DNA of 32,000 nucleotides, taken from Telmatocola sphagniphila. GTDB taxonomy: Bacteria; Planctomycetota; Planctomycetia; Gemmatales; Gemmataceae. The stretch spans positions 6,240,001 through 6,272,000 of the forward strand of contig NZ_CP074694.1 in assembly GCF_018398935.1 (NCBI RefSeq). The letters are read 5' to 3'. The notes beneath the pieces were generated by a model. That model saw nothing but the letters and a program-made list of their open reading frames with translations, searched no databases and was not told the origin of the DNA. A program made the translations under genes and the position numbers. Every line of letters starts with the position of its first letter. Position 1 is the stretch's first letter. Shown piece by piece: positions 26,350 through 31,237 of this stretch.

Positions 26350-27477
26350 ATGACTTTCGAGGAATGGCGACAGCAGATGCCGGTAACCCAGTTATGGGCC
26401 TATTTCGATCATGCGGCGGTCGCTCCGCTGCCGGCCCCGGCGGCCCGCGTCATCCAGTTTTATGCCGAGAGCTATCAGGCCAACGGCATCGCCGTCATTC
26501 AAGATTGGGTCGATCGGATTCGCGAAGTGCGCCGCCTGGCCGGGAAACTGGTTAATGCCGATCCGCACGACCTGGCTTTCGTTCCCAGTACGACTATGGG
26601 GATTTCCATCGTGGCTGAAGGGTATCCTTTTCAGCCCGGCGAGAACATCGTCTCCGTGGCCGACGAATACCCGTCCAATCAGTATCCCTGGATGAACCTT
26701 CGGGATCGCGGCGTGGAATTTCGAGCCGTTCCCACAGTTCAGGGTCGAGTCGATCTGGATGCTTTGTTTGGCGCGGTGAATGATAAAACTCGACTGCTGA
26801 CGATCAGCTCTGTGGAATACGCCACCGGCTTTCGCAACGATCTGGCCAAAATCGGTGAATTCTGCCAGTTGCGAAACATCTTTTTTTTCGTCGATACCAT
26901 TCAATCGCTGGGCGTCTCGCCACTGGATGTTCAGCAGCTTCCCCTAGATGCTTTCGCGGCCGATGGCCATAAATGGCTGCTTGGCCCCGAAGGAGCCGGG
27001 CTGCTCTACCTGAAACGCAAATGGATTGAGAACTTTCGACCCATCGGCGTCGGCTGGAATAGCGTGGTCGACAATTTGAATTTCGGCAAAATTGATTTTC
27101 GATTGAAACCGCACGTCGGCCGCTGGGAAGGCGGCACGACTAACATGGTGGGCCTGACGGCTTTGGGAGAGTCGATACGCCTGCTTTTGGATGTCGGCAT
27201 TGTCAAGATCGAACAGAAGCTTGAGAGTTTGACCGATCGGCTTTGCGAGGCGCTAACGGGCATCGGCTGGTCGATTTACAGCAGTCGGCAGCCGGGCGAA
27301 AAATCAGCCATCGTCTCGATTAGCAAAGACGGCGTGGATCCGCTGGAGCTTCAAAAGCGTTGCCGGGACGCCGGGGTTATCGTTAATGTGCGGGGAGGTC
27401 GGTTGCGAATTTCCGCCCACGGTTACAACACCTGGTCGGAGATGGAAGTGCTTTTGGAAATTCTGCGGAAGTACTAG
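26350..27477 (+). CDS. Class-V aminotransferase / cysteine desulfurase-like PLP enzyme
   Basis: 375-aa ORF with YFDHAAVAPLP, SSVEYATGFRND, FFVDTIQSLG and AADGHKWLLGPEGAGLLY (PLP Lys in HK). Confidence 0.88.
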   Translation: MTFEEWRQQMPVTQLWAYFDHAAVAPLPAPAARVIQFYAESYQANGIAVIQDWVDRIREVRRLAGKLVNADPHDLAFVPSTTMGISIVAEGYPFQPGENIVSVADEYPSNQYPWMNLRDRGVEFRAVPTVQGRVDLDALFGAVNDKTRLLTISSVEYATGFRNDLAKIGEFCQLRNIFFFVDTIQSLGVSPLDVQQLPLDAFAADGHKWLLGPEGAGLLYLKRKWIENFRPIGVGWNSVVDNLNFGKIDFRLKPHVGRWEGGTTNMVGLTALGESIRLLLDVGIVKIEQKLESLTDRLCEALTGIGWSIYSSRQPGEKSAIVSISKDGVDPLELQKRCRDAGVIVNVRGGRLRISAHGYNTWSEMEVLLEILRKY

Positions 27478-27492
27478 GGCTATCAAACGCGA

Positions 27493-27530
27493 ACCCCCGG
27501 TCGTTCGTCACGATCCGGGGGTATATTTAT
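27493..27530 (+). terminator. Terminator hairpin after the aminotransferase gene. A second hairpin at 27533-27560 probably serves the convergent gene.
   Basis: ACCCCCGG / CCGGGGGT stem (8 bp, extendable) followed by ATATTTAT. The adjacent CCGTCCGA...CGATGGACGG imperfect stem lies downstream of the minus-strand Gly/Tyr-rich gene. Confidence 0.55.
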
Positions 27531-27615
27531 AACCGTCCGATCAAGGTCCCCGATGGACGGGCTGAAGTTGGATGCCGCCAGATTATACCCGGCGGAGAGT
27601 TGTTTCTTTCTCGAC

Positions 27616-27987
27616 TTATCGACGCCAGCCGTAGTAGTGGCCGTAGTAAGGTCGGTAGTAGCCGCCGAAGCCAATTCCTACGCTAACGCTCGGTACGACG
27701 ACTGGTGCCGGTGCGGCGTAGACGACTGGGGCCTGCTGAACGACAACTGGGGCCTGAGTCACCACGGCGGGCGAGGTAGTCACGACTGTCGGAGAAGTGA
27801 CCACTGTCGGGGCATAATAAGAAGGATAGTAGCCGTAATAACCCGGGGCGAAGCCACCGATACCGATACTGAAGCCACTTCGGTGCCCATAGTTGGAATA
27901 TCCAAAGCTGACACCTTGAGCACTCGCCGATCCACTGAAGGCGAAGATTCCAAGCACCGCGGCCAAGCCAAATACTGCAGATTTCAT
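27616..27987 (-). CDS. Small secreted Gly/Tyr-rich protein with central Pro-Val-Val repeats
   Basis: 123-aa ORF. Signal peptide MKSAVFGLAAVLGIFAFSGSASA, then GVSFGYSNYGHRSGFSIGIGGFAPGYYGYYPSYY, then APTVVTSPTVVTTSPAVVTQAPVVVQQAPVVYAAPAPVVVP, then SVSVGIGFGGYYRPYYGHYYGWRR. Confidence 0.7.
   Translation of the reverse strand: MKSAVFGLAAVLGIFAFSGSASAQGVSFGYSNYGHRSGFSIGIGGFAPGYYGYYPSYYAPTVVTSPTVVTTSPAVVTQAPVVVQQAPVVYAAPAPVVVPSVSVGIGFGGYYRPYYGHYYGWRR
27691..27813 (-). repeat. Degenerate 18-21-nt tandem repeats encoding (A/S)P(T/A/V)VV(T/Q) units
   Basis: On the plus strand the units GACGACTGGTGCC, GACGACTGGGGCC, CGACAACTGGGGCC, CACGACTGTCGGA and GACCACTGTCGGG recur in series. Confidence 0.6.
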
Positions 27988-28444
27988 AGTGTTTCTCCTG
28001 ATTTTGGCCGGCTTTTGATACTCTTTTTTTGCTTCGGAGTTCGTTTCCGGCTTGTGTTACGGAATTATAACGTGCTCGAAGGTAGAACTTGCATAACCTC
28101 AAGCATTTTTCATTTTAAGTTGGGAATCTTCGCCGCAATGGGGCAATCTGGGTTCCTCCGAGATTGCCGAATTTAGGGTGATTTCGCAATTTGCGGAAAG
28201 TGCCGACCCTGGGCTCTTTCACGCCTGGGCAAACCTGTGAAAGTATACTGAGAAGACCTGTAAAATCGATTGCATTTCAGCGAATTCGCTATTAGATTAC
28301 CTACATCACAAAGCACTCGCAATTGCTCCTGTGACCCACCGAAACTCGAATCACGCAACCGTGTTAGTTGCTGAATCCTCACTGTTTTCAGCAGACACTA
28401 AACGATTCAGCGAAAGGTTCTCTTTTCTCTAGGGAGGCCAATGC

Positions 28445-28915
28445 ATGTATAAGGCTTTACAGGTAGCCGAAGCCATTTTGGCGTACTGCTACGAACAGGA
28501 ACATTCCTGTAGCAATCGTAAACTGCAAATGCTGCTCTATTACGTTCAAGGCTGGCATTTGGCGACCGCGGACGAACCTCTTTTCGATGAAGTGATACAT
28601 GCCGGGCCGATCGGCCCAGTGATTCACACCGTCGAAAGGCGTTATAAAGGGCATGGGAATCGACCCATCCACGTATATATCATTGATGCGGCGTATCACG
28701 AAAAACTGCGTCCCATCGTCAGCGAAGTCTGGTCGGCCTACGGAGATATGACCGATTTCGATCTTCAGAAATTGATTCAGGAAGAAATTCCCTATTTGGC
28801 CGCCCGACAGGATCTCATTCCGACCGACCCCGCCTTACCGGCGATTTCCATCGACGAACTTTGGGTTTTCTTCCAGGATCAACTGTCTGCCCGCGAAGCG
28901 TATAGCCGGAATTGA
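28445..28915 (+). CDS. Panacea / DUF4065 domain protein (SocA/GepA/PanA antitoxin-type)
   Basis: 156-aa ORF with GGAGG 7 nt upstream of the ATG. VAEAILAYC...NRKLQMLLYYVQGWHLATADEPLFDEVIHAGPIGPVIHTVERRYKGHGNRPI matches the DUF4065 signature (KLQKLLYY.QGW.L....PLF.E.....GPV...Y). The gene is AT-richer than its neighbours. Confidence 0.75.
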   Translation: MYKALQVAEAILAYCYEQEHSCSNRKLQMLLYYVQGWHLATADEPLFDEVIHAGPIGPVIHTVERRYKGHGNRPIHVYIIDAAYHEKLRPIVSEVWSAYGDMTDFDLQKLIQEEIPYLAARQDLIPTDPALPAISIDELWVFFQDQLSAREAYSRN

Positions 28916-28963
28916 GTCGTCTGATATTTGATTAAGTTATCCTACAATTCGGAACTGTTGCTT

Positions 28964-29004
28964 TTGCTGAGTTATGTCCGACAGCGCTCAGCAAGCATTT
29001 TGTC
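28964..29004 (+). terminator. Hairpin downstream of the Panacea gene (terminator or operator candidate)
   Basis: Perfect 8-bp inverted repeat TTGCTGAG (28964-28971) / CTCAGCAA (28987-28994) with a 15-nt loop, followed by GCATTTTGTC. Confidence 0.45.
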
Positions 29005-29104
29005 ACGTCGAATTGAGTTCCTTCTCATATCAAGTTCCTAGAGATTCCAATCACACTCTTGACAAAAGCTGTTTTCAACCCCTTTTTTAAAGGAGTATTC
29101 GTCC

Positions 29105-29965
29105 GTGAAGATTTCGGATATCGAAACAAAAGGACTATCCTTAGTCCTTGCTACACCGAAACAAGTTGAATCGCTTGAAAACGAGCTCTGGATTACATTT
29201 CCCAAAGGCTATCTACAGTACATTACCAAAATTGGGGAAGGCATATTAGGCGGTCATTACATTCGAATTTATCCACCTTGGAGAATCAAATCAGAACTCA
29301 CGGATTGGCGAAACAGAATCAAAAAATATTGGTTCTGGGAAAAAGGAAAGAAAATTCTCCCCCAAACACGAGCCCTAGAGTGTGTAATACTAGGAGACAC
29401 TTTGGATGGGGATGAAATTGTTTTCCATCCTGCAAAACCTCAAACTATTTTCATTTTGCCACGTAATTTCGAAAAAATTTTTGCGGTCGAAGGAGGACTG
29501 TTTGAAGCGATCGATTGGCTGTGTACCGCGGGTAAATTAACGAAAGCTTTCACGGAACGGGAGATCGTTCCATTCGATAGCCGAAAGCAGAACTCCGAAG
29601 GCTCGATGTCTGCCCAAAAAGAAGCTGATCCCCCAGGTGAGTCTCTTTCGGAGCTAATAGATGCGGGAAAGAGATGGGCCAAGCGGAATAAAGCATTCAA
29701 GACCTGTAAAGAGATCTTGAAAAATATTGTCGGAGAGCAGGAAGAGACCAAGGTTATTTACGAGGCAATCGGGTTCCAAGGAGATTACCCCTATTCAGCT
29801 GGTTGCTATATTTCAGTTATCGAGGTAATTGATTCACAAACCAAATTAAGTTTAGGCTTTTTAACAGCTCATGTGAATGAGGGGAGTTACGGAAGCAGCT
29901 TCGAAGCCAACAAAGCAAACAGAAAAAAATTGGGACGAAAATTAGATCCTCATGCGCCAGGATAA
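29105..29965 (+). CDS. SUKH (SMI1/KNR4)-like N-terminal domain fused to an unassigned ~120-aa C-terminal region
   Basis: 286-aa ORF with a GTG start 9 nt after AAAGGAG. VESLENELWITFPKGYLQYITKIGEGILGG and CVILGDTLDGDEIVFHPAKPQTIFILPRNFEKIFAVEGGLFEAIDWL fit the SMI1/KNR4 pattern (E..LG..LP..Y..FL...NGG ... G..Y.......V....F.EFL). No motif recognised in residues ~165-286. One 60-nt line counted by hand gives about 38% GC. Confidence 0.6.
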   Translation: MKISDIETKGLSLVLATPKQVESLENELWITFPKGYLQYITKIGEGILGGHYIRIYPPWRIKSELTDWRNRIKKYWFWEKGKKILPQTRALECVILGDTLDGDEIVFHPAKPQTIFILPRNFEKIFAVEGGLFEAIDWLCTAGKLTKAFTEREIVPFDSRKQNSEGSMSAQKEADPPGESLSELIDAGKRWAKRNKAFKTCKEILKNIVGEQEETKVIYEAIGFQGDYPYSAGCYISVIEVIDSQTKLSLGFLTAHVNEGSYGSSFEANKANRKKLGRKLDPHAPG

Positions 29966-30151
29966 ATGCTCTCATCTAGATCGTTCGAAGTCGCCCACAT
30001 TTCATAGCGATTCGCTAATGCTGACCCATCATGTAGTGGTATTCTCAAGTTTTTTCGCTACCGACATTCTCTTTTGGTGCAATTCTGTATACTATTTCCT
30101 TTGTCGCATAAAGAGAAAACTATCCCAATATTGTTCTAAGTGAGATCTCTC

Positions 30152-31237
30152 ATGGCCGAGAATGATCGTGAATTGAAAAACACACTGTCGGCAATTGAAA
30201 AGGAGTTCGGCAAAGGGTCCATCATGTCTCTGGGCGAGACGGATGTTTCCGATATCCAGGGCATTCCCACAGGGGCTCTGAGCCTGGATATCGCTCTGGG
30301 TGGGAAAGGTCTTCCCCGCGGTCGAATTATCGAAATTTATGGGGCCGAATCCTCGGGCAAAACCTCCATTGCCCTACACTGTGTCGCGAATGCTCAAAAA
30401 CAGGGCGGTGTCGCTGCATATATCGACGCCGAGCACGCTCTGGACCCCAGCTGGGCCAAGCGCCTGGGCGTTGACCTGGAATCGCTTCTGGTCTCCCAGC
30501 CTACCTTCGGCGAAGAAGCCCTGCGGATCGCGGAAATGCTGGTGAAATCGAATGCGGTAGACATCATCGTGATCGATTCGGTGGCCGCGCTGGTGCCGAA
30601 GACCGAAATGGAAAACGAGATCGGCGATTCCTCGATGGGGATGCAGGCTCGGTTGATGAGCCAGGCCCTGCGGGTTCTGAATCCGGTTATCTCCAAGACG
30701 AAAACCTGCGTGATCTTCATCAACCAGATTCGACAGAAGATCGGTATCGTCTACGGCAACCCGGAAACGACGCCGGGCGGGCTGGCCCTGAAGTTCTATT
30801 GCTCCGTTCGGTTGGAGGTCCGTCGCGGCCCGGCCATCAAAGATGGCGACGACATCATCGGTAACGAGACCAAAGTCAAGGTCGTCAAGAACAAGATCGC
30901 TCCCCCGTTCCGACAGGCCGAGTTCGAATTGCTTTACGATCGCGGCATCAGCTACGAAGGCGATTTGCTCAACCTGGGCGTGAATGCGGAAATCGTTTCC
31001 AAGAGCGGCTCCTTCTTCAGCTATGGCGACACCCGGCTGGGGCAGGGCAAGGAAAATGCTCGCGAATTCCTCCGTCAGAATGGCAATGTGGGCGAAGAGA
31101 TTCGCGGCAAGATTCTGGAGAAAATGGGCTTCGTCGCCAATGCCATGCTCGTTCCCGTGGAAAACCGCGATAAGGAGGAAGAGGTAGAGCCCGAAGCCAT
31201 TCCCGCCCCGAAACGGAAGAAATCCTCAGAAAAGTAA
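30152..31237 (+). CDS. recA: Recombinase RecA
   Basis: The ORF track starts at GTG 30140, but ATG 30152 ([29 protein letters not shown]) is the more likely start. Motifs include Walker [36 protein letters not shown] and [28 protein letters not shown]. Confidence 0.97.

Follow-up and report, generated by a model that had tools for sequence, protein, structure and literature searches.

A low-GC islet upstream of recA in Telmatocola sphagniphila: a solo Panacea gene and a SUKH gene, probably unrelated and independently acquired

The DNA analysed is a 32-kb stretch of the Telmatocola sphagniphila chromosome (contig NZ_CP074694.1, positions 6 240 001 to 6 272 000 of the forward strand), referred to below as the window. 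Coordinates given without a locus name are counted from its first nucleotide. Upstream of recA, the window contains an islet (27988-30139) of low guanine plus cytosine (GC) content with two antidote-type genes. Gene 1 encodes a Panacea/DUF4065 protein and gene 2 encodes a protein that opens with a SUKH (SMI1/KNR4-like) domain. Relatives of the two genes were never found together at the loci examined, and the islet probably holds two unrelated orphan genes acquired independently, not a two-gene system. Both genes are intact and preceded by Shine-Dalgarno sites, at the positions given in a preliminary description of this DNA, and the spacers before, between and after them measure 457, 189 and 186 nucleotides (nt), as described there. 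The proteins of both genes are 100% identical to Telmatocola sphagniphila proteins at NCBI. The features of the islet and of its right-hand border are as follows.

28445-28915, plus strand: gene 1, a solo Panacea/DUF4065 (PanA-type) gene of 156 amino acids (aa), with an ATG start and a GGGAGG Shine-Dalgarno sequence upstream.
29105-29965, plus strand: gene 2, encoding a two-domain protein of 286 aa, with a GTG start, an AAGGAG Shine-Dalgarno sequence and a strongly foreign composition.
28959-29003, plus strand: a terminator-like hairpin (12-bp stem followed by TTTTGT) located 44 nt past the gene-1 stop codon and present in both the minimum free energy and the centroid structures.
27988-28444, no strand: a divergent spacer of 457 nt (GC 0.457) between a Gly/Tyr-rich gene on the minus strand and gene 1, with no supported gene or RNA.
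29966-30151, no strand: the spacer of 186 nt (GC 0.398) before recA, presumably the promoter and leader region of that gene.
30152-31237, plus strand: recA, the right-hand housekeeping boundary, 100% identical to Telmatocola sphagniphila RecA and listed for context only.

The composition of the islet was compared with that of the window. Its GC content is 0.444, against 0.545 in the rest of the 32 kb, and it is the lowest of all 2152-nt segments of the stretch (segments outside the islet: mean 0.544, standard deviation 0.017, minimum 0.513). The tetranucleotide distance is also highest at 27988-30139. The low-GC islet that had been proposed from a few hand-counted lines was thus confirmed, and the profile is not flat. 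The two genes contribute unequally. Compared with the 23 other genes of the window, gene 2 is strongly deviant (GC 0.424 and third-codon-position GC (GC3) 0.397; z-scores -5.7 and -5.4), whereas gene 1 is mildly low (GC 0.505 and GC3 0.561; z-scores about -2). The GC content of the three islet spacers ranges from 0.40 to 0.46, and the dip arises mainly from gene 2 and the spacers. Gene 2, at least, is foreign by composition, and the GC3 values of the two genes are discordant (0.561 vs 0.397). The spacers had also been called unusually long. They do exceed the median gap of the window, but gaps of 1494, 1257, 409, 270 and 252 nt occur elsewhere in it according to a crude gene map.

The assignment of gene 1 to the Panacea/DUF4065 family was borne out by profile searches. 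Residues 27-115 matched PF13274 (SocA_Panacea) at 41.4 bits, above the gathering cut-off of 25.7. The match to NF047745 (SocA) covered residues 4-79 only and reached 39.6 bits, the equivalog cut-off being 190. The protein also matched the phage family phrog_1281 (9e-25). An exhaustive HMMER search returned 4371 relatives at E<=1e-3, and below 1e-30 the sole representative of a 50%-identity cluster was that of gene 1 itself. Three further relatives, with 55%, 53% and 34% identity, were obtained by a word-indexed search. The gene-1 subfamily is common in metagenomes and prophages. Viral contigs contained 303 relatives of the gene-1 subfamily and none of the gene-2 family.

The surroundings of gene-1 relatives were examined at 162 loci (82 metagenomic and 80 viral). 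Relatives sharing 31-39% identity with gene 1 almost always have an antitoxin-first arrangement, in which an open reading frame (ORF) of about 140-155 aa lies directly downstream and usually overlaps the Panacea gene. One family accounts for 52 of 59 such downstream ORFs; it was found at 45 of the 80 viral loci and, among metagenomic loci, at 58-66 of the 79 that leave space for such a gene. Members of this family (about 145 aa) lie at L055 4443-4889, L007 926-1360 and L058 4450-4869 and at about 100 further loci (L055-L216), and their consensus includes the motif ...RFSFKYL...HPI.W..TTEP.GF...WQF...GRVHGF...FY.VWLDP.H.LY. No match in Pfam or the PDB was obtained for the family. All 13 sampled members weakly matched NCBIfam NF046006 ('MAG6450 family'), the best E-value of 4.7e-8 being below the cut-off, and one member matched phrog_8366. 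In Mycoplasma agalactiae, PanA stands antitoxin-first with PanT cluster T1, with gaps of -35 to +16 nt (Dataset S1 in Kurata et al., 2022, PMC8832971). Since the MAG6450 name and the antitoxin-first arrangement agree, the partner family is probably T1, and it is presumably the toxin (PanT) of the subfamily.

This partner is absent from the window. A six-frame search for a decayed copy gave nothing in the islet, either by hmmsearch --max (best E-value 0.72, outside the islet) or by tblastn. The two closest relatives of gene 1 lack the partner as well; they share 53-55% identity with gene 1 and form with it a solo clade of three members (window 28445-28915, L008 1689-2150 and L217 396-872). At L008, a convergent gene for a membrane protein begins 10 nt downstream of the Panacea gene; at L217, the 106 nt after the stop codon hold only a hairpin. 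As the partner is missing from all three, gene 1 appears, from these sequences, to belong to a Panacea lineage maintained intact without its usual neighbour. Gene 1 is uninterrupted and keeps the 15 invariant residues of the subfamily, and the clade is full-length in three lineages at 53-55% identity, which argues for selection. Two tryptophans differ. All three proteins of the clade have another residue in place of the Trp that is nearly invariant in the EAWIHGPV motif (Gly54 in the window, Ser and Glu in the others), and the conserved Trp at position 117 is Tyr in the window protein alone. A Panacea gene outside a conserved pair is no rarity: only about half of DUF4065 proteins are encoded in conserved two-gene loci (Kurata et al., 2022, PMC8832971).

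Gene 2 comprises a SUKH/SMI1-KNR4 fold (residues 1-160), a disordered linker and a C-terminal domain (residues 176-286). Its own Pfam scores lie below the cut-offs (SMI1_KNR4, 21.1 vs 25.4 bits; SUKH_5, 21 vs 27 bits), and PF09346 (SMI1_KNR4) was matched by 33 of 41 members of its family, with a best E-value of 1.2e-8. The AlphaFold model (mean predicted local distance difference test score, pLDDT, 88.2) was compared with the PDB using Foldseek, and the top matches were the SMI1/KNR4 protein 3d5p (E-value 2.7e-4, probability 1.00), YobK (2prv) and 2pag. The N-terminus is accordingly modelled as a SUKH fold, in agreement with the preliminary description. PADLOC gave no match for the gene 1 or the gene 2 protein.

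The family of gene 2 is widespread. At least 174 proteins belong to it; they are about 270-290 aa long, share 40-50% identity over their full length and come from Planctomycetota, Chloroflexota, Acidobacteriota, Actinomycetota and Pseudomonadota, and 24 columns are invariant in an alignment of 41 sequences. Shorter versions (160-170 aa) consist of the N-terminal domain alone, and roughly half of the SUKH-family relatives have the C-terminal domain. This domain (29630-29965) is predicted to form a helical hairpin followed by a four-stranded antiparallel sheet (pLDDT 88.7 when modelled alone); it had no match in Pfam, PHROG, the PDB or BFVD. Its conservation is centred on the initial DPEGES...W...R segment, in the first helix, and the sheet is almost devoid of invariant residues. 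Judged from the alignment, this pattern does not look like that of an enzyme active site or a catalytic toxin. At 15 of 19 full-length loci, the homologue of gene 2 has a lower GC content than its flanks, a sign of recurrent horizontal transfer.

Some homologues deserve separate mention. In two planctomycete metagenome-assembled genomes (MAGs), the homologue is broken at profile position 70 and consists of two ORFs that overlap (L037 6001-6812 and L045 5914-6896); the frameshift is either the mark of a pseudogene or an assembly error. In a Caldilineaceae MAG (L001/L011, 2587-3332 and 9770-10834), the homologue lies within a few kilobases of two gene pairs, one DUF433/DUF5615 and the other a NotI-type restriction-modification system. 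The neighbourhood of one homologue, at least, is thus rich in defence genes, though sugar-kinase genes flank the gene itself.

Whether genes 1 and 2 belong together was judged from the loci of their relatives. A Panacea hidden Markov model (HMM) built from 153 relatives was run on all ORFs within 6 kb on each side of 52 gene-2 loci, a few of which are the same contig counted twice. No Panacea ORF was found at any of the 52 loci, and the model did detect the window gene and two control loci. Conversely, the HMM of the gene-2 family had no match at the 162 gene-1 loci. The two families never co-occur in these samples, which was one of the outcomes named in advance as speaking against a pair. Gene-2 relatives have no recurrent neighbour of any kind: all-against-all clustering joined only a few syntenic close relatives, and a Pfam scan of 133 neighbour ORFs from 20 non-redundant full-length loci revealed no recurrent family, Panacea not being among the 25 most frequent. 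Six annotated neighbourhoods were all different and mostly metabolic. Within the islet, the hairpin at 28959-29003 suggests that genes 1 and 2 are separate transcription units. It was passed over by a simple terminator scan, its loop containing an inner helix, and the promoter and terminator scans as a whole remained at shuffle expectation.

In the survey that defined PanAT pairs (Kurata et al., 2022, PMC8832971), the two genes had to be separated by at most 100 nt and the pair conserved in at least two species. Gene 1 carries the Panacea/DUF4065 domain expected of one of the two proteins. It lies 189 nt from gene 2 and 457 nt from the upstream divergent gene, and the arrangement recurs at 0 of 52 and 0 of 162 loci. 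As both of these defining properties are lacking, the locus is not a PanAT pair.

The preliminary description had considered that gene 2, or its C-terminal half, could be a new effector neutralized by Panacea. In such a PanAT-type pair, gene 2 would be a growth inhibitor that had taken the place of the MAG6450-like partner through partner swapping. Gene 2 is on the same strand as gene 1, in antitoxin-first order and exactly where the partner of the subfamily is usually encoded, Panacea antitoxins are hyperpromiscuous and exchange partners often (PMC8832971), and no known fold was matched by the C-terminal domain. An SMI1/KNR4 protein has even been listed beside PanA, as PanT cluster T66, in two Saccharothrix species (Dataset S1 in PMC8832971); the earlier statement that no described system pairs the two modules is therefore not exact. 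T66, however, is listed in that dataset amid MurA, FtsY, CTP synthase and other neighbours that are plainly there by chance. The comparative data go against such a pair: besides the absent co-occurrence and the discordant composition, true partners overlap the Panacea gene, while here a 189-nt gap with a terminator-like hairpin intervenes, and the poorly conserved C-terminal sheet is unlike a catalytic toxin. Gene-2 relatives persist alone in many phyla with no conserved neighbour, which makes a toxin in need of an adjacent antidote very unlikely. We consider a new pair of this type highly improbable. Equally improbable is a variant in which the gene-2 family consists of single-chain conflict proteins, the SUKH domain checking the C-terminal effector or sensing for it, with one member captured in Telmatocola by a Panacea antitoxin that had lost its toxin. 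Were it true, gene 2 would be the first tested immunity-type SUKH protein to act as the toxin component of a PanAT pair.

It had also been proposed that the long spacers conceal the toxic partner, which would be an RNA or a small ORF. Such an ORF could encode a toxin of type I or type II. The lengths of the spacers, above the median gap, leave room for it, and a 63-aa ORF at 29952-30143 has a hydrophobic stretch. However, neither this ORF nor any other of the five spacer ORFs (37-69 aa) was found in a collection of 15 billion proteins, and none is preceded by a Shine-Dalgarno sequence comparable to those of genes 1 and 2. Rfam gave nothing at E<=1 across 27000-31000, and the folding z-scores of the spacers were unremarkable (-1.1 to -1.5; -1.37 for 27988-28444). 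No non-coding sequence is common to the surroundings of the three solo Panacea genes, the comparison of 27988-28444 with the regions upstream of the L217 and L008 genes included, and the window holds no trace of the usual partner. A hidden partner is very unlikely on these grounds.

The explanation that we favour, with some confidence, is that a small variable chromosome region beside recA has collected two accessory genes separately: a solo PanA and an orphan SUKH gene. Of the three readings offered in the preliminary description, the orphan-immunity locus fits best, and through it the earlier interpretation is partly supported. Any action of gene 1 would consist in binding to a related toxin that is provided in trans; its role could be anti-addiction or cross-immunity, or else it would be independent of any toxin. 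Gene 2 would have been imported recently and would belong to a widespread stand-alone family combining SUKH with a novel C-terminal domain. The analogy with known SUKH immunity proteins suggests that it would serve as an orphan immunity protein, binding the toxin domain of an incoming polymorphic toxin and blocking it. As functional orphan SUKH genes have been documented (PMC12247911), this role is a reasonable analogy, and no more than that.

Several points weigh against this explanation. Only 32 kb of the genome are in view and a cognate toxin could be encoded elsewhere in it, in which case the antidotes would be distal and not orphan. The loss of the EAWIHGPV Trp could mean that the binding function of gene 1 has been altered or lost. 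For an immunity protein, the gene-2 family is unusually conserved (40-50% identity across phyla, 24 invariant columns), and it was never seen beside a toxin gene, so that the immunity role is by analogy only. Finally, the partner swapping of Panacea may leave room for a one-off new pairing despite the comparative data (PMC8832971).

Some of the same observations would suit a different explanation, in which gene 2, a member of the SUKH superfamily, has spread horizontally and has a conserved role in the cell, in binding or in regulation, and gene 1 is what remains of a toxin-antitoxin module and is decaying or neutral. The SUKH superfamily does include non-immunity members, such as yeast Smi1/Knr4. 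The conservation across phyla would be expected, gene-2 relatives are always single-copy in housekeeping contexts and never in immunity arrays or beside toxins, and the missing Trp of the gene 1 clade would be a trace of decay. On the other hand, the patchy distribution of the gene-2 family and its foreign GC content in most hosts are easier to reconcile with a conflict or accessory gene than with a core function, and the intact state of gene 1, with its invariant residues kept and full-length forms in three lineages, argues for selection. This explanation is possible, and less probable than that of two independently acquired orphans.

If the two genes are indeed independent orphans, the islet as it stands matters little: chance insertion would have made them neighbours, as commonly happens to accessory genes. 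Each is of interest apart from the other. The solo Panacea clade, kept intact without its partner, bears on what 'orphan' antitoxins do, and the gene-2 family is a widespread and well-conserved combination of SUKH with a C-terminal domain that has no match among solved structures.

The flanks of the islet were searched for signs of its origin. On the left are housekeeping genes for a Ser/Thr kinase, dihydroorotate dehydrogenase, a CNNM protein, an M50 peptidase and a class-V aminotransferase; on the right are recA, rnpA and yidD. As the preliminary description had noted for the vicinity, the scan of the flanking genes (17.2-27.5 kb and 31.3-31.9 kb) revealed no nuclease, integrase or secretion gene, and likewise no recombinase or toxin gene. 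The 32 kb contain no tRNA gene. An imperfect direct repeat of 18 nt (27978-27995 and 29996-30013, 15 of 18 positions matching) brackets the islet almost exactly. It was rejected as an att-like site, about 1.6 such pairs being expected by chance per 3 kb. Mobility hallmarks (an integrase, a tRNA target, flanking direct repeats above chance) were therefore not found at the islet. Neither gene lies upstream of recA in three relatives whose RecA proteins are 74-78% identical; because the recA flanks of these relatives are not syntenic with the window, the comparison is uninformative on insertion.

Two observations concern the border genes. The start of recA is ambiguous: the ORF opens with GTG at 30140, and the ATG at 30152 gives MAENDRELK..., which corresponds at 100% to the 361-aa public RecA. 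On the other side, the Gly/Tyr/Pro/Val-rich ORF of 123 aa (27616-27987, minus strand) has a signal-peptide-like N-terminus and short internal repeats (families D1, D3 and D4). It has no Pfam match, and its exact sequence is absent from the 15-billion-protein collection, so that the public annotation may use another start at this position or call no gene there.

The genes were finally compared with the systems that they resemble. Gene 1 is like PanA of PanAT (Panacea/DUF4065; SocA of SocAB; PMC8832971) in its domain and, as with many PanA proteins, in its size (about 150-160 aa) and in having no N-terminal domain, and its relatives at 31-39% identity are like PanAT pairs, being antitoxin-first with an overlapping conserved partner. 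Unlike PanAT, gene 1 has no partner within 100 nt and no conserved two-gene architecture, and the EAWIHGPV Trp has become Gly. The closest described arrangement is T66, which can be set beside the islet by description only. In both, a Panacea gene adjoins an SMI1/KNR4-family gene. T66 is a putative pair listed for only two species, both of the genus Saccharothrix (S. carnea and S. australiensis), with toxin-first order (T|A) and gaps of 67-95 nt (Dataset S1 in PMC8832971), whereas in the islet the Panacea gene comes first, the gap is 189 nt and the arrangement is not conserved.

Gene 2 is like SUKH immunity proteins (e.g. Bacillus subtilis YobK, 2prv) in the predicted fold of its N-terminal 160 aa. 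It is also like the orphan SUKH immunity genes of Bacteroidales rAID islands, which are functional protectors (PMC12247911), in being stand-alone and foreign in composition. Unlike the cognate immunity genes of polymorphic toxin systems, it does not follow immediately downstream of a toxin gene with a C-terminal toxin domain, none being present among the flanking genes scanned, and it is a single SUKH gene, where the rAID islands have an array of immunity genes and a recombinase. It further differs from both groups by its additional C-terminal domain (about 110 aa, conserved), and conservation within its family is much higher than is typical of immunity proteins.

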